From: an uncultured Arcobacteraceae bacterium | Lineage (GTDB): Bacteria; Campylobacterota; Campylobacteria; Campylobacterales; Arcobacteraceae | Assembly (NCBI GenBank): GCA_964022095.1 | Contig: CAXHZO010000017.1 | Coordinates: forward strand, 1 to 51,837 | Direction: 5' to 3' | DNA: 51,837 nt | In this document: in pieces, positions 5,549-13,697 of the stretch | How the letters are laid out: each line of letters begins with the position of its first letter | How positions within the stretch are numbered: the stretch's first letter is position 1 | Translations under genes and position numbers: made by a program | Notes under the pieces: generated by a model | Databases searched by the model: none | The model's input: the letters and a program-made list of their open reading frames with translations, nothing else | What the model was told of the DNA's origin: nothing

Positions 5549-5960
5549 TTTGATCCAGTTTTGTTATGATGTCTTGTGTTTTGGTATTTAGTACTTCAAT
5601 ATTTATATCATATGCTTTCTTAACTTGAGTTATGATTTTGCTGTTTTCACAAATCACTTGAATACTACTGTTTGTTTTCCACGAATATTCTAGTGACTTA
5701 CAGTAACCTGCAAATATTAGATAACCTTCTTTTGGAAAATTGATGGTATTTTTCTTTGTAAGAATTAATTCACTACCATATGGAGCATGACCAGTTTCTG
5801 ATCTGGATTCAAATTCAAAAATCGTATATTGTTTACTTGGTGATTGTTTACTCGTTTTAAACTTGTAATCAACTCCAAGAAAAGAGTTGCTTGCAATTTT
5901 TATTACTATACACCCTCCAATAACAAGTAGTAAAATTACAATTATTAAATTTTTGTTCAA
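5538..5960 (-). CDS. Hypothetical exported/membrane-anchored protein, probable former cassette
   Basis: 140-aa ORF with N-terminal hydrophobic segment; AAGGA RBS directly after a GTTAAGA core-like site. Confidence 0.65.
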   Translation of the reverse strand: MNKNLIIVILLLVIGGCIVIKIASNSFLGVDYKFKTSKQSPSKQYTIFEFESRSETGHAPYGSELILTKKNTINFPKEGYLIFAGYCKSLEYSWKTNSSIQVICENSKIITQVKKAYDINIEVLNTKTQDIITKLDQNER

Positions 5961-5971
5961 ATTAAAATCCT

Positions 5972-5996
5972 TCTTAACTCAAATGTTATGTTATAC
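5972..5996 (-). repeat. Collapsed (internally deleted) attC remnant
   Basis: Minus strand GTATAAC-ATAACATTTGA-GTTAAGA. The R'' matches the cassette's own entry core GTTATAC (6400-6406), but there are no L boxes and no stem. Confidence 0.6.
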
Positions 5997-6380
5997 ATCT
6001 ACTTTATAATTTAGTTTAATCTCATCGCCTGTCATACCTCTAAAACCCCAATTTGAAGCTGGACTTTCAATAATACAAATTTCTAAATCATTATTTTCTA
6101 TATTAAGCTCTTGTCTAATACTCTTAAACAATGACTTTATTAAATCTTTTTTTGTTTCTGTCTCTCGACCTTCTATCATCATAATCTCAATTATAGTATA
6201 TTGTTTGCTTTTATCAGCAGGAAATATCATCTCATCTTCATTGAGGGATATAAACCTATGATATTTTTTATCTTTAGGAAATGATAATATTTCAACTATT
6301 GCTGAATGTATAGTTTCTGATAATTTTTGTTTAATATTATCAAGATTATCTTTTAATCCATAGACTTTAACTTGTGCCAA
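5991..6380 (-). CDS. Tautomerase-superfamily protein (YrdN-like), cassette 6
   Basis: Beta-alpha-beta pattern, IIEIMMIEGR..ETKK.LI, NWGFRG; stop codon lies within R''. Confidence 0.85.
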   Translation of the reverse strand: MAQVKVYGLKDNLDNIKQKLSETIHSAIVEILSFPKDKKYHRFISLNEDEMIFPADKSKQYTIIEIMMIEGRETETKKDLIKSLFKSIRQELNIENNDLEICIIESPASNWGFRGMTGDEIKLNYKVDV

Positions 6381-6399
6381 GAGTTTGTTCCTTTCTTAA

Positions 6400-6468
6400 G
6401 TATAACGTTTAAAATGAGCCAATAAATTGCCCGCAGGGTAATTTATTGGCTCCACTGGTTTGTTAGGA
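6400..6468 (-). repeat. attC site (69 bp)
   Basis: TCCTAAC-AAACC-AGTGGAGC...GCTCATT-TTAAAC-GTTATAC; 17-bp inner stem with one G.T pair and a 3-nt loop. Confidence 0.92.
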
Positions 6469-6469
6469 T

Positions 6470-7654
6470 TTATAGCCATTCACCATCCATTTTTTTAACT
6501 CTAAATGTTTTCGCAAAGTCCATAATAATCTCATTGTTAGTTAACTGCAACCACTTGTTAAAACTTTTTATAAGTAAACTAATTATACCTGCATATTTAT
6601 CTAGATACTTTTCTTCTAATTTATAAAAATTTGTTAAATTTTCAACGTTACCAGAATAAAAATCACCTAGATTAGCAACTTGTCCATGAGTATCATCTAT
6701 TTTTTTCATTAATAAGTATCTTTTATTAAAATTATTATCCTCTGTGACTTTAGAGCTATGTACTACATAAAAACCTGTTTTCTTTTCATCAAGTTTAACT
6801 AATAGTTTAGAAAAATAGTTTGTTTTAATCTTATCATATTCAGAAAACCATTCATATATATCAATTAATGAATTTAATATTTCACGATTATAGTATTGAG
6901 AACCCATTGCTTGATTTACAAATGAGTAAAACTTTTTTTCATGTTCATGAAAACTTTTTAGAATATCAAAACCTAGAATCTTTTTATCTCTTAAAATTTC
7001 TATTATTCCTGATTTGTCTAAATTAATAAATGCAGTTGTATTGTCAAAAAAGTTATCACTGTTAGGTTTATTTATAAAACGTACTAAATGGGAAATAAGC
7101 ATTAGCATTTCTTGGTCAATTTCTTTTTTTAGAAAATCTAAAATTTTATCTGTTAAAATCCCTTTAGATTGCATTTCTGTAATTGATTTTTTAATTTGAT
7201 GGGATAGACTTCTTTTAATATCACTCTTCACATGATCTTTTAAACTATAGGGCATTATTCTTCTATTTCTTAAATCAAATGGCAAATCATCAAAGCTTCC
7301 AAAGTCAGTATTATATATACAAATAATTTTTTCCCAGCCTAATGTTCTTGCTGCATATCCTAGTTCAATTAATACATTGGGATTTGGAGTTTTTCTAATA
7401 CTTTCATCTGAACTATTAACTATGGATATATCAGCAACAAAAACACTGCTATTACTTATTTTACTAAATATAGACTCTGTAATATCAGGAGAACCTGTAT
7501 CTTCTCTTGTTGCCCTATCAATATTTATATTGATAGGGATAGGTTGAATTTTCTTGAGTTCTTTTGTTGCTAAGATAATGCTGTCCTCAATAAAAGTCCA
7601 ATTAGTTTTATTTGGTAAATCAGATTGCCATGAATAAAATATCGTTCTTTTCAA
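6470..7654 (-). CDS. Protein with N-terminal TIR-like/nucleoside-deoxyribosyltransferase-like domain and helical C-terminus, cassette 5
   Basis: IFYSWQSD, GSPDI..IF.KI, FVADIS, PNPNVLIELGYA, LPFDLR motifs. Confidence 0.7.
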   Translation of the reverse strand: MKRTIFYSWQSDLPNKTNWTFIEDSIILATKELKKIQPIPININIDRATREDTGSPDITESIFSKISNSSVFVADISIVNSSDESIRKTPNPNVLIELGYAARTLGWEKIICIYNTDFGSFDDLPFDLRNRRIMPYSLKDHVKSDIKRSLSHQIKKSITEMQSKGILTDKILDFLKKEIDQEMLMLISHLVRFINKPNSDNFFDNTTAFINLDKSGIIEILRDKKILGFDILKSFHEHEKKFYSFVNQAMGSQYYNREILNSLIDIYEWFSEYDKIKTNYFSKLLVKLDEKKTGFYVVHSSKVTEDNNFNKRYLLMKKIDDTHGQVANLGDFYSGNVENLTNFYKLEEKYLDKYAGIISLLIKSFNKWLQLTNNEIIMDFAKTFRVKKMDGEWL

Positions 7655-7671
7655 TTTATTATTTCCTTATA

Positions 7672-7741
7672 TCCTAACGTTTGTCGTGAGCAATAATTTT
7701 CCCGCTAGGGTAAATTATTGGTCTCCTCGTACTTGTTAGCT
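7672..7741 (-). repeat. attC site (70 bp)
   Basis: AGCTAAC-AAGTA-CGAGGAGA...GCTCACG-ACAAAC-GTTAGGA; imperfect inner stem AATAATTTACCC/GGGAAAATTATT. Confidence 0.88.
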
Positions 7742-7753
7742 TTGTGTGTCAAA

Positions 7754-8401
7754 CTAGTTAATTTTAATAAGTACTTGTTCTTCAATAGATTTTGAAATTA
7801 TAACCATTAAGACAAATGTAAACTTTAGGTACTCTTCACCAACAACTCTTTTATTCCCTATGTTTAGATTACTATCTTCATTTATTTTTAAATATGTTTT
7901 ATTAACTAATCCATTATTATGAAGGATGATATTTCGAGTACTAAATAATTCAATAATATTTACTTTCCACTTTTCAATATCTGGAAAAACTAAATTAAAT
8001 TCTTTTGCAAGGTGTTTTAATTTATCGTTAAACGATGAGTGTGAAAATCTTAAAATAATTTTTTCTCTCTTTTCTTCTTCCAAAGAAGGCTTTTTCCATA
8101 GATAAATTGATTTAACAATATCATTTAAGAAAGCATCTGTTCTAGCAATTAAATTGATAAAGCAGTATTTATATATTTCTAATTCGTAAGTACTTACGGA
8201 CTCTTGTAGGTTTTCAAATATTTTCATCCCTTCAATTTCTTCTGCACTTCTTTCTTTATTGTTAAACTCTTTTAATATCTCAGGGTATTTATCTTTAAAG
8301 AAGCCATATGAAGTACGAGTACCCGTTAGAAACTGGTCTATACTTAGAACATCTTTTTTAAAGTCAGTAATATTTTTTTCTATATATTCTTGTATATTCA
8401 C
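7754..8401 (-). CDS. HEPN-like domain protein, cassette 4
   Basis: All-helical, RNIILH (Rx4H) motif followed by NNG; GTG start with AGGAG RBS. Confidence 0.6.
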   Translation of the reverse strand: MNIQEYIEKNITDFKKDVLSIDQFLTGTRTSYGFFKDKYPEILKEFNNKERSAEEIEGMKIFENLQESVSTYELEIYKYCFINLIARTDAFLNDIVKSIYLWKKPSLEEEKREKIILRFSHSSFNDKLKHLAKEFNLVFPDIEKWKVNIIELFSTRNIILHNNGLVNKTYLKINEDSNLNIGNKRVVGEEYLKFTFVLMVIISKSIEEQVLIKIN

Positions 8402-8417
8402 TATAAGTCTCCTATGA

Positions 8418-8485
8418 AGCTAACGTTTGAATAGAGCGAATAAGTAACCGCTAGGTAACTTATTCGCTCCTATATTTTGTTATGT
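8418..8485 (-). repeat. attC site (68 bp)
   Basis: ACATAAC-AAAAT-ATAGGAGC...GCTCTAT-TCAAAC-GTTAGCT; L''/L' pair perfectly apart from one extra base. Confidence 0.92.
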
Positions 8486-8962
8486 ATTTATTGTAGTCAG
8501 TTTCAACTGTAAAATTTCTTCATCAGTTAATAATCTATCTTGAGTAATTGCAAACTTTATTGCACCAACTTGTTTTGCTAGTTCTTGTAATAAAAAAATC
8601 TCGCTTTGTTTTATTGCTTTTTGAGATTTTTTGTCAATATAAAATATCAGATGAAATCCTAAAAATCCAAATTTTCTATGAGACATTATATTTTGAATTA
8701 AATATAATATCATTGTTCGTGCAAAATCAATATCATCAAAAATAATTTCATTTGTTTTAAATGGATTGAAAATTTCACAATCTTGATGTTGCTGAACATT
8801 TTCTCCAATAGCTATAACAATGTCATTTTTAATTGCTATTTTTGAAGAAATAGAAATTGATGTATTTCTTTCAATATATTTCAAATGAAGCATTTCATTT
8901 TCAATAGCAAGATAAAATGTTTTTTTTAAAAATTTTGATATTAGAAATGTTGTTAAATCCAT
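8480..8962 (-). CDS. Short MreB-related (YjaA-like) protein, cassette 3
   Basis: IAIGE...NPF...IIFDD.DFA..M..Y.I and SE...LQELA.QVGA resemble the N-terminal lobe of MreB. Start moved to ATG 8962 (AGAGGA RBS) because the longer ORF runs into the attC. Confidence 0.6.
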   Translation of the reverse strand: MDLTTFLISKFLKKTFYLAIENEMLHLKYIERNTSISISSKIAIKNDIVIAIGENVQQHQDCEIFNPFKTNEIIFDDIDFARTMILYLIQNIMSHRKFGFLGFHLIFYIDKKSQKAIKQSEIFLLQELAKQVGAIKFAITQDRLLTDEEILQLKLTTINT

Positions 8963-8976
8963 TTTAATCCTCTTTG

Positions 8977-9107
8977 ACATAACGGTTGAGTTAAGTGGAC
9001 GAGGGTACTTGAACACTTGATTGTTTGAACTAAATTTTAACTTTTTTAGGCTTTAAAGCTTAAATTACCGCAAGTATACCCTCGTTCACTTCTAGGATTT
9101 GTTAAAC
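8977..9107 (-). repeat. Long attC site (131 bp)
   Basis: GTTTAAC-AAATC-CTAGAAGT-GAACGAGGGTATACTTG...CAAGTACCCTCGTCC-ACTTAAC-TCAACC-GTTATGT. Confidence 0.85.
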
Positions 9108-9114
9108 AACTGTG

Positions 9115-9699
9115 TTAGCGACTACAACCTCCAAACAACTTCCAACATTCACTAATTATTGTTTCTTCCATTTCTCTTGCTAACTTTGAATATTCTTCTG
9201 CTTCATCATATGAAATTTCAAAAGAAATTTCATGAACAGCTTGATTTCTTAATTGTTGCAATTTATGAATAATCTTAATTTCTTCTTTTTGTAAAACTTG
9301 TTTATCTTCATAAAGTTTTAAAACTTTCATTAACGGTAGATGCTTGTCTGAATCAATAATTTTGTAATGTTTTGCATTACTGAATGCAGTAAATTCTAAA
9401 GCAATCCAAGATTCTACAATAATTGTTCTTGGTGAAGTTTCTAAAGTGTCTTTATTAACATATGCATTATTTGTATTTGTTATAGTTTCTGTGGGTTGTT
9501 CTTTTTTCAATTTGTCTTTTTCATTTTTTAGTTCTTCTAATTCTTTACCAAATTCTATTTCTAATTCACCATATTTAAATTTACTTGTATAAGGAATTAG
9601 TTTTTTTATATAATCTTTTAGCCACCAAACAATTATCACTATTGAAATAGGCCAAGCAATTGAGTCAACTAATGATGAGAAAAATGTTAACCAATCCAT
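9115..9699 (-). CDS. Membrane-anchored protein with C-terminal HEPN-like domain, cassette 2
   Basis: N-terminal hydrophobic helices (AWP), coiled coil, LRNQAVH (Rx4H) motif. Confidence 0.6.
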   Translation of the reverse strand: MDWLTFFSSLVDSIAWPISIVIIVWWLKDYIKKLIPYTSKFKYGELEIEFGKELEELKNEKDKLKKEQPTETITNTNNAYVNKDTLETSPRTIIVESWIALEFTAFSNAKHYKIIDSDKHLPLMKVLKLYEDKQVLQKEEIKIIHKLQQLRNQAVHEISFEISYDEAEEYSKLAREMEETIISECWKLFGGCSR

Positions 9700-9716
9700 A
9701 TTTATTAATTTCCTTT

Positions 9717-9785
9717 GTTTAACGTTTGAAATGAGCTAATAAATTACCCACAGGGTAATTTATTAGCTCCACTGATTTGTTATGT
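9717..9785 (-). repeat. attC site (69 bp)
   Basis: ACATAAC-AAATC-AGTGGAGC...GCTCATT-TCAAAC-GTTAAAC; perfect 17-bp inner stem; 60/69 identical to the site at 6400-6468. Confidence 0.93.
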
Positions 9786-10370
9786 AGGTTCTTCAATCAT
9801 ACTAGGAAATTCATAAACAAACTTAAGCAGCATTTCAACAAAAACTAAAAGTTCTTTGGCGTCTGTAGCATTCATCAATTGAATCTCATGAGTTGCTTCA
9901 TTACCTTTTTTCCTTATATGGTCAACCCAGTGTCTACCATTTGGGGGAATAAATCCAGCATCTGAAAGATAATTTACATATTCAATGAACCGCTTACCCT
10001 CGTCTGCTCCTTGATTAACAGCAATATTCATCAAAATTTTTCTGCAAATTAATACAGATGCGGTAAAACAACTTTGTCCCGTGCATTTTCTCGCTTCATC
10101 ATATAATTTTGATAGTTCATCGGGTACATTTCCAACGGAATTACCCATAATGGATTGGGGAAATTGCTGACCAGATGGCGTGATAAAAATTATTCCACCA
10201 CAACTAGGACATATATATGCGGCTCCATTCTGTGATCCACTTCCATCACTATGTAACCCAATTTTTAGCCCTTTTTCTGAAGAAACTTTGTCTCCACAAT
10301 ATCCACATTTAAAAGATAGAACATTTAATTGTTGTGGTTTATACCAATTACTTCCATTTAAAAAATTCAT
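9780..10370 (-). CDS. DUF4145 (HEPN-superfamily) protein with N-terminal CxxC...CxxC zinc ribbon, cassette 1
   Basis: CGYC and CPSC, LYDEARKC..SCFTASVLICRKILM, IRKKGNEATH. Confidence 0.78.
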   Translation of the reverse strand: MNFLNGSNWYKPQQLNVLSFKCGYCGDKVSSEKGLKIGLHSDGSGSQNGAAYICPSCGGIIFITPSGQQFPQSIMGNSVGNVPDELSKLYDEARKCTGQSCFTASVLICRKILMNIAVNQGADEGKRFIEYVNYLSDAGFIPPNGRHWVDHIRKKGNEATHEIQLMNATDAKELLVFVEMLLKFVYEFPSMIEEPT

Positions 10371-10576
10371 TTTTCTACTTTAGACAACATAATAGATTTG
10401 AAAACTTTTTCTTTAACCTCTTTCCCTGAAAACCATTGACAGACAACATCTCCATCATCAAACCCTTGTAATTTAAACATATCATCATGATGACCATTAC
10501 CAACGACATAAGAAACTGTCATTTTTTCTCCACCAGAATTAAGTTGAACCACATCGCCTTCTTTTAATACACTCAT
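10367..10576 (-). CDS. YodC/DUF2158-family small protein, cassette 1
   Basis: GDVVQLNSGG.KMTV...CQWF motif; AGGAGG RBS; ATGA overlap with the next gene. Confidence 0.82.
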   Translation of the reverse strand: MSVLKEGDVVQLNSGGEKMTVSYVVGNGHHDDMFKLQGFDDGDVVCQWFSGKEVKEKVFKSIMLSKVEK

Positions 10577-10599
10577 TGTTTCCTCCTACTTAAATTTAT

Positions 10600-10618
10600 A
10601 CATAACTATTTATTAGTA
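10600..10618 (-). other. Putative attI-like recombination site at the head of the array
   Basis: TACTAAT-AAATA-G|TTATGT (degenerate L box, 5-bp spacer, core); core complements R'' at 9779-9786; no attC stem upstream. Confidence 0.6.
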
Positions 10619-10622
10619 ATAC

Positions 10623-10656
10623 ATTATATATTAATTACCCATAAAATTACTTAATA
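10623..10656 (-). promoter_or_regulatory. Putative cassette promoter (Pc-like), copy 1 of a 34-bp direct repeat
   Basis: Minus strand TATTAAGTAATTTTATGGGTAATTAATATATAAT ends in TATAAT, 16 bp upstream of the crossover G. Confidence 0.55.
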
Positions 10657-10846
10657 GTAATACATTTTTAATGTTATGACATCAAGTTAGACAAAGCCCT
10701 ATAAATAGGCTTATTTTAATAAAATATAAAATATTATATCAAAATAAATAATATTTTTTATCGTATTTTATATGTTTAATATAGTTATTTTTGCAAGATT
10801 ATTAACATATATCCTTAATAGTTTATCAAGATATCTTAGCTATATT

Positions 10847-11212
10847 TTAAACCCAAACATCCTCTTCTGCAGTTAGTTCACTATCTGTATCACCTGTATT
10901 AACAACACCTTTTGGCTCTACAATCATAATTTTACATTCACTACTAGCTACAGGTTTGTGTTCTACTCCTTTTGGAATCACAAACATCTCACCCGAATCT
11001 AAACTAACTGACCCATCACGGAACTCAATATTAAGTGTGCCTTCTATGACAATAAAAACCTCATCAGTATCAGTATGTTCATGCCAAACAAATTCACCTT
11101 CAACTTTTACTAACTTAAACTGATAATCGTTCATTTCTGCAATAACACGAGGTGACCAGTGTTCAGTAAACTTTGAAAATTTATCTTTAAAATTTATTGT
11201 ATCAAACTTCAT
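10847..11212 (-). CDS. Cupin-domain protein
   Basis: [13 protein letters not shown] and IPKGVEHKP cupin motifs. Confidence 0.9.
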
Positions 11213-11248
11213 TTTAACTCCATAATTTAATCTATTAATTTATAATAT

Positions 11249-11282
11249 ATTATAAATTAACTACCCATAAAATTACTTAATA
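11249..11282 (-). promoter_or_regulatory. Putative cupin-gene promoter, copy 2 of the 34-bp direct repeat
   Basis: 32/34 identical to 10623-10656 and also ends in TATAAT on the minus strand. Confidence 0.55.
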
Positions 11283-11300
11283 TATGACAATATGTCATAT
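11282..11300. promoter_or_regulatory. Palindromic operator-like site
   Basis: ATATGACA-ATA-TGTCATAT between the divergent cupin and radA genes. Confidence 0.4.
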
Positions 11301-11399
11301 TTTTTATCTTTTTTTATATGTTTGCTATAATTTTTAAGAATATAAAGAATTAAACAAAAATGATATAAAATCACCACTAGATTTTTAAGGACAATAAAT

Positions 11400-12749
11400 A
11401 TGGCGAAGAAAAAAACATCACTTTTTGAGTGTCAGCACTGTGGAGAACAAAGTACAAAATGGCTAGGAAAATGTCCCAACTGTGGAAGTTGGGATAGTTT
11501 TATAGAATTAAACCAAGACCAGCAAGAAGTACTAAAACAAACAGCAAAGGTAGTAAACACTACTTCAAAAGCAACACCAATCACTCAAATAAAACAAGAT
11601 GATGTTACAAGATTCACATCAAATAACGACGAATTTGATTTAGTTTTAGGTGGAGGAATTGTTCCTGGTAGTTTAACACTTATTGGTGGAAGTCCAGGGG
11701 TTGGTAAATCAACACTTTTACTAAAAGTTGCAGGAGCGATTGCAGCAACAAACAAAAAAGTACTTTATGTGTCAGGTGAAGAGAGTGCTGGACAAATAAA
11801 ACTGCGAGCAAATAGACTAGAAGCAAACAGTGATAATATGTACTTACTTAGTGAAATAAAACTTGAAGAGATTCAAGATGAGCTACTAAGACAAGATTAC
11901 GAAGTATGTATTATTGATTCTATTCAAACTATTTATTCTTCAAACCTTACAAGTGCTCCAGGAAGTGTATCCCAAGTGAGAGAAATCACATTTGAACTTA
12001 TGAGAAAAGCAAAAGAATCAGATATTGCTATGTTTATTATTGGGCATATCACAAAAGATGGTTCTATCGCAGGGCCAAGAGTACTTGAACACATGGTTGA
12101 TACAGTTTTATACTTTGAAGGTGAAGCTTCAAAAGAACTTAGAATGCTAAGAGGTTTTAAAAACAGATTTGGTTCAACTTCTGAAATTGGTATTTTTGAA
12201 ATGACAGCAGAAGGACTAATAAGTGCAAAAGATATTGCTTCAAAATTCTTTGATAAATCAAAAGCCCAAGCAGGCTCAGCCCTTACAGTTTCAATGGAAG
12301 GAAGTCGTGCAATCATACTTGAAGTTCAAGCACTAGTAACAGAAAGTACATATCCAAACCCTAAAAGAAGTGCCACAGGATTTGATGCAAATAGACTTAC
12401 TATGCTATTAGCTCTATTAGAGAAAAAAATAGATTTACCACTAAACAATTATGATGTATTTATAAATATCTCAGGTGGAATAAGAATCAAAGAGAGTTCT
12501 GCAGACCTTGCCGTAATCGCTGCAATTATCTCAAGTTTTAGAGATAGACCAATTTCTAAAGAATCAGTATTTATAGGTGAAGTTTCACTAACAGGTGAGA
12601 TTAAAGATGTTTATTCATTAGATTTAAGATTAAAAGAAGCACAAGCACAAGGTATAAAAAAAGCAGTAATTGCTCAAAAACCATCACTAAAACTTGATAT
12701 AAAAACCTTCCCTGTGGATGAAGTATCAAAAATGATAGAGTTATTTTAA
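11400..12749 (+). CDS. radA: DNA repair protein RadA/Sms
   Basis: C4 zinc finger, GSPGVGKST, KNRFG motif, Lon-like C-terminus. Confidence 0.98.
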   Translation: MAKKKTSLFECQHCGEQSTKWLGKCPNCGSWDSFIELNQDQQEVLKQTAKVVNTTSKATPITQIKQDDVTRFTSNNDEFDLVLGGGIVPGSLTLIGGSPGVGKSTLLLKVAGAIAATNKKVLYVSGEESAGQIKLRANRLEANSDNMYLLSEIKLEEIQDELLRQDYEVCIIDSIQTIYSSNLTSAPGSVSQVREITFELMRKAKESDIAMFIIGHITKDGSIAGPRVLEHMVDTVLYFEGEASKELRMLRGFKNRFGSTSEIGIFEMTAEGLISAKDIASKFFDKSKAQAGSALTVSMEGSRAIILEVQALVTESTYPNPKRSATGFDANRLTMLLALLEKKIDLPLNNYDVFINISGGIRIKESSADLAVIAAIISSFRDRPISKESVFIGEVSLTGEIKDVYSLDLRLKEAQAQGIKKAVIAQKPSLKLDIKTFPVDEVSKMIELF

Positions 12750-13277: not shown

Positions 13278-13697
13278 ATGATTGAATTAGAAAACAATAC
13301 TGAATTTGAAATTAATCTAAAAACTATAGAAACAATAACTACAGAGTTAACAAACAGAGACGTAGAATTAATAGTAGTTAATAATAATGAAATTCAAGAA
13401 CTAAATAAAGAACATAGAAATATAGACAAAGCAACTGATGTTCTTAGCTTTCCTATGGATTTCGATTTTCCAAATATGCCATTAGGCTCAATTGTGATCT
13501 CAACAAATTTTGTTGAAGAAAAATCAAAAGAATACGGACATAGTTTTGATGAAGAGTTTACATTATTATATATTCATGGGATACTTCATCTTTTAGGATA
13601 TGATCACGAAGTAGATAATGGTGAACACAGAAGCAAAGAAGAAGAACTAATCAATCAATTTAATTTACCAAAAAGCTTAATAGTAAGGAGTTCATAA
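13278..13697 (+). CDS. ybeY: rRNA maturation endoribonuclease YbeY
   Basis: TDVLSFP and HGILHLLGYDH motifs. Confidence 0.97.
   Translation: MIELENNTEFEINLKTIETITTELTNRDVELIVVNNNEIQELNKEHRNIDKATDVLSFPMDFDFPNMPLGSIVISTNFVEEKSKEYGHSFDEEFTLLYIHGILHLLGYDHEVDNGEHRSKEEELINQFNLPKSLIVRSS

Follow-up and report, generated by a model that had tools for sequence, protein, structure and literature searches.

Where a cassette array is headed by what looks like an attI site with no integrase gene behind it, the question arises of whether that site is a self-contained platform or the residue of a once complete integron. This question is posed by a contig from an uncultured Arcobacteraceae bacterium, the whole 51,837-nt length of which was analysed (hereafter, the window). 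In a first-pass annotation, the site at the head of the array was interpreted as a stand-alone pad rather than a decayed remnant. Comparison with related genomes favors the opposite reading, to which we assign a probability of roughly 0.78: the locus would be a decayed sedentary chromosomal integron at the radA gene, with a true attI and a deleted intI, and it would now constitute a CALIN that has kept its attI.

The array itself is well defined. The flagged site heads six cassettes with five attC sites (9717–9785, 8977–9107, 8418–8485, 7672–7741, and 6400–6468), all in one orientation. As single strands, these five sites fold far better than their shuffled counterparts (z scores of −7.4, −2.8, −5.8, −5.2, and −5.5, respectively), and four of them align at a mean column identity of 82%, with invariant TAAC...GTTA ends. 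The locus thereby has the defining features of a CALIN, namely at least two attC sites in a single orientation, imperfect hairpins, and no integrase nearby. Moreover, each of the six cassettes opens with six bases exactly complementary to its own R″ box, as seen in the first cassette, where TTATGT is matched by the R″ box ACATAAC (9785 to 9779), and for this reason the flagged junction is considered a real cassette boundary. The R″ box overlaps a stop codon in three of the six cassettes.

All six cassettes lie on the minus strand. Cassette 1 (9723–10605, attC1 at 9717–9785) carries two overlapping ORFs with DUF2158 (10367–10576) and DUF4145 (9780–10370) domains. These ORFs, which together occupy 9780–10576, overlap at an ATGA and encode proteins of 69 and 196 aa, respectively; the pair may be a two-gene module, for instance a defence or toxin-antitoxin pair. 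Cassette 2 (8983–9722) encodes a 194-aa product with weak similarity to DUF4145 and ends in the long attC2 (8977–9107), while cassettes 3 (8424–8982, attC3 at 8418–8485) and 4 (7678–8423, attC4 at 7672–7741; 215 aa) contain ORFs lacking Pfam matches. Cassette 5 (6406–7677, attC5 at 6400–6468) encodes a 394-aa protein (6470–7654, minus strand) whose TIR-like similarity is weak, the match to the CAP12/Pycsar TIR effector domain falling short of the Pfam cut-off, and it is a candidate anti-phage gene. Finally, cassette 6 (5990–6405) encodes a tautomerase, and its R″ box (GTATAAC, 5996 to 5990) is not backed by a hairpin, the fold of 5900–5996 giving a z score of +1.07; the array is accordingly taken to stop near 5990.

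At the head of the array, the minus strand reads TATAAT (10628 to 10623), 16 nt, and then G (10606)/TTATGT (10605 to 10600), where the slash marks the crossover, and the letters TACTAAT-AAATA stand directly 5′ of the crossover G10606. Both the position of the TATAAT box and the start of cassette 1 are thus as first described, and so is the absence of an attC hairpin upstream of the first cassette, since the fold of 10590–10700 (z of −0.77) is no better than that of shuffled sequences. The core site GTTATGT (10600–10606, minus strand) has its crossover between G10606 and T10605, and it is here that homology to related attI regions ends. The TATAAT at 10623–10628 (minus strand) is unremarkable as a word, with 104 copies on both strands of the window, or about two per kb. 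A simple sigma-70 consensus scan did not include it among its eight sites (9.3 ± 3.3 expected from shuffled sequences), although such a scan is uninformative in AT-rich DNA of 28% GC. Alignments show that the box is kept in register across related attI copies, and it is this conservation that leads us to infer a role for it as the −10 box of a candidate cassette promoter. Allowing up to five substitutions, the 27-nt core beside the box has two occurrences in the 2.57-Mb assembly, both of them in this locus (10656 and 11282). They belong to the flagged site itself, here termed copy B (the inner copy), and to a degenerate outer copy, termed copy A. An 11-nt word, ATGTATTACTA, is found twice in copy B (10662–10672 and 10613–10624, minus strand), with starts 48 nt apart; the two words are partly conserved in related attI copies, the upstream one has been lost from copy A, and they could be additional integrase-binding sites.

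The first-pass annotation was correct in regarding copy B as attI-like, and the comparison allows a stronger statement. The element is a full-length attI region of 10606–10846 (minus strand), forms no hairpin, and stops approximately 60–75 nt short of the expected intI start. Some 235 nt upstream of the crossover G (10598–10832) recur at E ≤ 1e-8 in 49 of 184 Arcobacteraceae genomes, and intact IntI genes above the TIGR02249 cut-off are present in 44 of the 184. Over about 230 nt, copy B is 90% identical to the attI beside the intact intI of genome G202, the closest intI-adjacent copy, and a copy in G001 is likewise 90% identical over about 230 nt. Full-length matches adjoin intact intI genes in G202, G171, G169, and G105. 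In loci L038, L048, L047, and L044, copy B aligns with DNA directly upstream of, and divergent from, an intact intI, and it does so in part in six more loci. The first-pass annotation asked whether further copies of the site adjoin an intI or head arrays, and both situations were found in relatives; the possibility that the sequence might prove unique and unrelated to any intI-adjacent attI has turned out to be the reverse of what is observed.

The boundaries of the homology are equally telling. In a set of 19 intact-intI loci, chosen from 80 because their IntI was at least about 80% identical and their upstream flank was complete, a proximal consensus ending in ...AATAAATAG/TTA was found 245–304 nt from the intI ATG in 18, and the alignment of the 19 sequences loses its similarity right past GTTA. 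When 11 further loci from seven genomes were aligned with the window, similarity extended up to ...TAATAAATAG/TTA with none beyond, the relatives continuing with GTTATGT, GTTAAGT, GTTATAC, or GTTAGGT and then with unrelated ORFs. By homology, the element thus occupies the place that separates intI from the first cassette in complete integrons. It also possesses the G/TT crossover of a GTTRRRY core, and the cassettes that lie downstream of it are unrelated from one genome to another. Because it is homologous to intI-adjacent attI sites and breaks at G/TTRRRY, 10606–10846 (minus strand) is identified on comparative grounds as the true attI region of an Arcobacteraceae chromosomal-integron lineage.

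The comparison with the attI1 site of class 1 integrons, drawn in the first-pass annotation from an L-box-like sequence, held in part. Like attI1, the Arcobacteraceae site lies between intI and the first cassette, shares the G/TT of the GTTRRRY core, is double-stranded in character with no hairpin, and contains an internal direct repeat, here the word ATGTATTACTA. In contrast to that shared core triplet, the likeness of the L box is a resemblance without further similarity, and unlike attI1 the crossover of this lineage is situated approximately 245–304 nt from intI. A core-like GTTAAAC (in the cassette sense) about 35 nt from the intI ATG is also conserved in intact integrons (L063, L073, L075, and others); this perfect GTTAAAC, which copy B lacks, may be either a secondary site or one at which the integrase binds for regulation.

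If copy B is a true attI, the fate of its integrase becomes the central issue. The assembly (2.57 Mb, 31 contigs, 99.99% complete by marker genes) contains no IntI above the TIGR02249 cut-off of 265, the best match being 53 bits, and no match is located on this contig. It contains no second attC cluster, since the attC model matches this locus only and a heuristic scan agrees, and no attI core outside this locus at up to five substitutions. The attC covariance model (R1) is narrow, as the four sites underlying it are very similar; it missed the long attC2, and it may miss other attC types, for example near cupin homologs; the heuristic scan, which returned 146 mostly isolated matches, is informative only on the absence of a second cluster.

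What does remain of the integrase is a 3′ remnant at 11344–11388 (plus strand), comprising the last 14 codons and the stop, with all 14 amino acids identical in tblastn to those at the C-terminus of the intact G105 IntI. The coding portion (11344–11385, plus strand) specifies KELNKNDIKSPLDF, and the remnant ends 11 nt before the radA ATG. Its DNA is nearly identical to the 3′ end of the G105 intI as far as the radA start, and its 45 nt match intI 3′ ends in more than ten relatives. No functional intI lies beside the attI, as it would in a complete integron; there is only this 14-codon stub. The earlier view that no recognizable intI debris was present is therefore accurate for 10620–10846, where none was found, and mistaken for the locus as a whole. 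Of the four refuting conditions listed in the first-pass annotation, two thus weigh against a novel pad: the sequence is akin to intI-adjacent attI sites, as a true attI should be, and debris of intI is present, albeit beyond the interval named there.

The neighbors named in the first-pass annotation, a cupin gene (10847–11212, minus strand; PF07883) and radA (11400–12749, plus strand; RadA-typical Pfam matches), were identified correctly, and radA proves to be the conserved right-hand flank of the integron. At the DNA level, it is 74–89% identical to the radA genes of G001, G027, G105, G021, and G035. In G105, the order is array, attI, intI, and then radA 9 nt further on, and the far side of the array is bordered by genes homologous to those of the window's left flank; in both G105 and G027 the integron is situated between homologs of those left-flank genes and radA. 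The intI gene directly precedes radA in G105, G021, and G035, and in G027 it does so with a 1.5-kb insert. This arrangement is an exception in the family, where intI is directly upstream of radA in three of 80 intI loci and in two of the 46 with full flanks. In G001, a member of the same genus, the radA locus is without an integron and an attI-headed array is located elsewhere. Both the integron-free radA locus of G001 (L062, 5352–6716) and its attI-headed array (L020) contain 454-aa ORFs starting with the same residues, and these are probably copies of an insertion sequence.

It is the combination of no IntI, a single array, no other attI core, an intI remnant, and synteny at radA in relatives that underlies the decayed-integron reading. 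Judged by this comparison, the window is the orthologous chromosomal integron, its intI apparently deleted down to the last 14 codons. Without an integrase, the array would be frozen as a CALIN retaining its attI.

The sequencing runs that contain the stretch are marine and seawater metagenomes, with no RNA run among those listed for 9700–11400. The 31-contig assembly may itself derive from a metagenome, and an intI may conceivably lie on a piece left unassembled or unbinned. Contigs of four metagenome runs are too fragmented to provide clean alternative alleles, and they offer hints only. One is identical over 11344–11670 and unlike the window left of 11344; in another, which comes from a diverged strain, 48 letters replace seven at 11285–11293, inside copy A; and one has a 76-nt gap at 10758–10833, inside copy B. 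Joints of 7726 to 10603 and of 10662 to 11393 could be repeat artefacts.

Between the flagged site and the intI stub, the locus has an unusual tandem structure in which a cupin gene is enclosed by two attI copies. Copy A (11232–11338, minus strand) is the one joined to the stub, and it consists of the proximal 51 nt of an attI fused to a palindrome-bearing distal piece. The proximal portion is a repeat (D7) in which the 51 nt of 10606–10656 occur again at 11232–11282 with 88% identity, ending exactly at the crossover G. A further repeat (D5) of 67 nt is 76% alike between copies A and B. Copy A is without approximately 75 nt of the native attI middle, and its distal piece is 88% identical over 58 nt, including the palindrome, to positions 110–167 of an intI-adjacent attI (L080). 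Chance similarity between AT-rich sequences was set aside as a source of D5, since the same piece of copy A matches the attI regions of other genomes.

The element between the two copies (10847–11231, minus strand) comprises a complete cupin ORF (10847–11212; PF07883, E of 4e-11) and a 19-nt leader, and the ORF is thus bounded tightly, with 19 nt upstream and approximately 0–15 nt downstream. Its stop (10847–10849, GTT TAA) directly abuts the distal end of copy B. On the 5′ side, copy A remains homologous as far as the aligned G, and the next bases are AT rather than TT. Cupin homologs end at the same residue, and the ORF is accordingly complete; the idea that its C-terminus was built from attI sequence was ruled out by that shared end residue (DVWI/DVWV). 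The 3′ site of the ORF is attI-derived and ends in G/TTRRRY, with no attC and no intervening hairpin, as expected of an attI-type cassette. Elsewhere in the family, ten of 184 genomes have cupin homologs; these lie in ordinary surroundings outside integrons, and each has an upstream region of its own. Several of these loci (L052, L053, L054, L057, L058, and L061) share an upstream motif, caataatgttctat, and at two of the loci the downstream ORF resembles, by eye, an AraC-type regulator; these homologs have the look of chromosomal genes under regulation, which the window's copy does not.

The history we infer and prefer for this arrangement is that of an attI-type cassette. The cupin gene would first have formed an ordinary cassette in which the stop codon (GTTTAA) and the R″ box overlapped. 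A crossover between the AA/C of that R″ box and a position some 240 nt up in the attI could then have generated a circle of cupin plus attI, and the circle, with its roughly 240 nt of attI, may have been integrated at the resident attI as an unusual, attI-type cassette. Subsequent loss of the integrase would have let the normally unstable attI-ORF-attI structure persist. Copy B is not considered a recent derivative of copy A, because the two are 88% and 76% alike in their repeats, compared with 90% identity between copy B and the attI of other genomes. This counts against the attI-type cassette model, as does the crossover of copy A, which reads G/AT and not G/TT. In addition, the region upstream of radA in G027 resembles the window's intI/attI deletion junction (72% over 121 nt of AT-rich DNA), and if G027 shares that junction, the stub is old and integration at copy A would have needed an integrase from elsewhere.

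A second history, possible though less favored, treats copy A and the intI stub as an old, dead integron at radA with the cupin gene as its first cassette, and copy B as the head of a second module that was gained behind the cupin gene by horizontal transfer or recombination and later lost its intI up to the cupin stop. Copy B is indeed nearer to the attI of other genomes (90%) than to copy A, and tandem modules, in which a truncated intI, an attI, and an array are repeated, occur in G130 and G186. G027, moreover, seems to share the A-type junction, yet it possesses an intact intI, an attI, and an array 1.5 kb further on; the likeness of this junction is modest, however, as the 72% figure comes from AT-rich DNA. 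The same history demands that the deletion end within a few bases of the cupin stop and leave the ORF undamaged, and that the cupin attC be lost, and no second intI trace is present between the cupin gene and copy B. Either history leaves the verdict of a decayed integron unchanged. The 1.5-kb insert of G027 (L064, 16665–18183), which lies between the intact intI and radA, contains a 169-aa ORF. Behind this ORF, another intI 3′ remnant, likewise degenerate, is joined to a palindrome resembling that of attI, in what appears to be the junction seen in the window.

The attI element is by no means confined to complete integrons in the family, and it is here that the satellite-pad interpretation finds its best arguments. 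According to that interpretation, the flagged site is a minimal unit of attI and promoter with no integrase of its own, which is served in trans and permits an integron to be distributed over several loci. The attI element of 49 of the 184 genomes is often present in several copies, with at least four each in G105, G130, G143, and G127. G105 carries a single intact intI together with at least three further full-length attI copies that are 85–89% identical to the intI-adjacent one, giving at least four full-length copies at distant loci (L063, L066, L067, and L068), and at least two of the further copies are followed by attC sites. In G020, the intact intI is approximately 114 kb from one of three other attI copies, and satellite copies in relatives keep the conserved proximal core. 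Against these points, this assembly has no IntI, one array only, and no attI core elsewhere, and an intI remnant lies 740 nt from the flagged site at the orthologous position. Debris of intI is also found beside several intI-less copies in relatives (L021, L024, L025, L066, L070, L074, and L075), and the upstream ends of the G105 satellites differ, as independent decay, and not a defined unit, would give: 21 intI codons survive in one, and the others break off 23 and 63 nt short of the ATG. A satellite pad is therefore very improbable as an explanation of the flagged site, and the companion proposal that the integron is spread over several loci of this genome fails, with attI core and attC clusters confined to a single locus. 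Least credible of all is the alternative that the array arose by integrase-mediated cassette insertion at a secondary genomic GTT site (attG-type) and subsequent growth, events of a kind documented in other work (bioRxiv 10.1101/2022.09.11.507474; PMC4889954) and compatible here with the crossover triplet GTT, as the 240 nt upstream of the crossover G are homologous to intI-adjacent attI regions and are not the ordinary, attI-unrelated host sequence that such an origin would leave, leading us to reject it.

Other forms of the element are found among the relatives. In L070 (G130, two copies), L074 (G186), and L025 (G020), the same truncated intI is present, with approximately 13 codons followed by the stop. 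In these three genomes, which represent two genera, the truncated gene is joined to the same conserved sequence of about 90 nt, each time beside a full attI, and the junction looks like a shared or mobile module of truncated intI plus attI, or the end of an inserted element. Short, attI-derived copies are also embedded inside relatives' arrays, where they comprise the last 25–55 nt, including TATAAT, and end in AATAG/TTA. Examples include L024 (oriented positions 6948–6992 and 13619–13662), L069 (11686–11741), and L070 (9819–9855 and 12625–12658), and these copies resemble the ends of delta-attI-type cassettes or cassette-borne promoters.

Loss of intI is one of the origins listed for CALINs by Cury et al. 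2016 (PMC4889954), and of the 279 CALINs surveyed in that paper, only 15 had a recognizable intI pseudogene nearby, while attI could be searched for only in classes 1–3. The window resembles a CALIN formed by intI loss in having an array without an integrase, and it differs in its retained attI and intI stub; its attI is recognizable by comparison with relatives. A parallel case is found in Xanthomonas, where repeated inactivation of intI at a fixed locus downstream of ilvD has been described (bioRxiv 10.1101/2025.06.18.660453). Like those integrons, the present one occupies a conserved position (here at radA) and is complete in some genomes (G105, G021, G035, and G027), with the integrase lost and the array stable elsewhere. 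Unlike them, it belongs to Campylobacterota and is anchored at radA, a position common to only three of 80 intI loci of the family.

The closest likeness to the attI-cupin-attI tandem is found in the "unusual delta-attI-type" cassettes found in integrons of classes 1 and 2 (PMC12901181), which include, among the cases described, one with a 244-nt delta-attI2 and one with a full attI1-ORF-attI1 layout that was excised at 100% by IntI1. As in those cassettes, the cupin ORF is followed by an attI-derived G/TTRRRY end and preceded by another att site. Unlike them, the tandem is part of an environmental chromosomal integron and has a degenerate upstream copy with G/AT. Its occurrence in an integrase-less genome fits the instability reported for the attI-ORF-attI layout when an integrase is present.

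For this window, the result is mostly corrective: an apparently new type of platform is an integron minus its integrase, which is a known route to orphan arrays. To our knowledge, the attI site has otherwise been identified in very few classes of integron, and among the papers listed in a literature search, judged by titles and the beginnings of abstracts, none describes chromosomal integrons of Arcobacter or the attI belonging to them. For a Campylobacterota integron lineage, attI can now be recognized from sequence by the consensus ...TATATAATGTAT..T.AATAAATAG/TTA at approximately 245–304 nt from intI, and as few as 14 remaining intI codons have been enough to trace an orphan array to the loss of its integrase. 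The attI-ORF-attI layout, so far associated with clinical class 1 and 2 integrons, also appears in an environmental chromosomal integron. It is tempting to suggest that in Arcobacteraceae the attI module multiplies, and not the whole integron, with one IntI serving many sites, although we regard this as doubtful. If a single IntI did serve all attI sites, such genomes would possess a multi-headed, distributed integron, and the attI-cupin-attI tandem of the window would be a fossil of attI-by-attI traffic.
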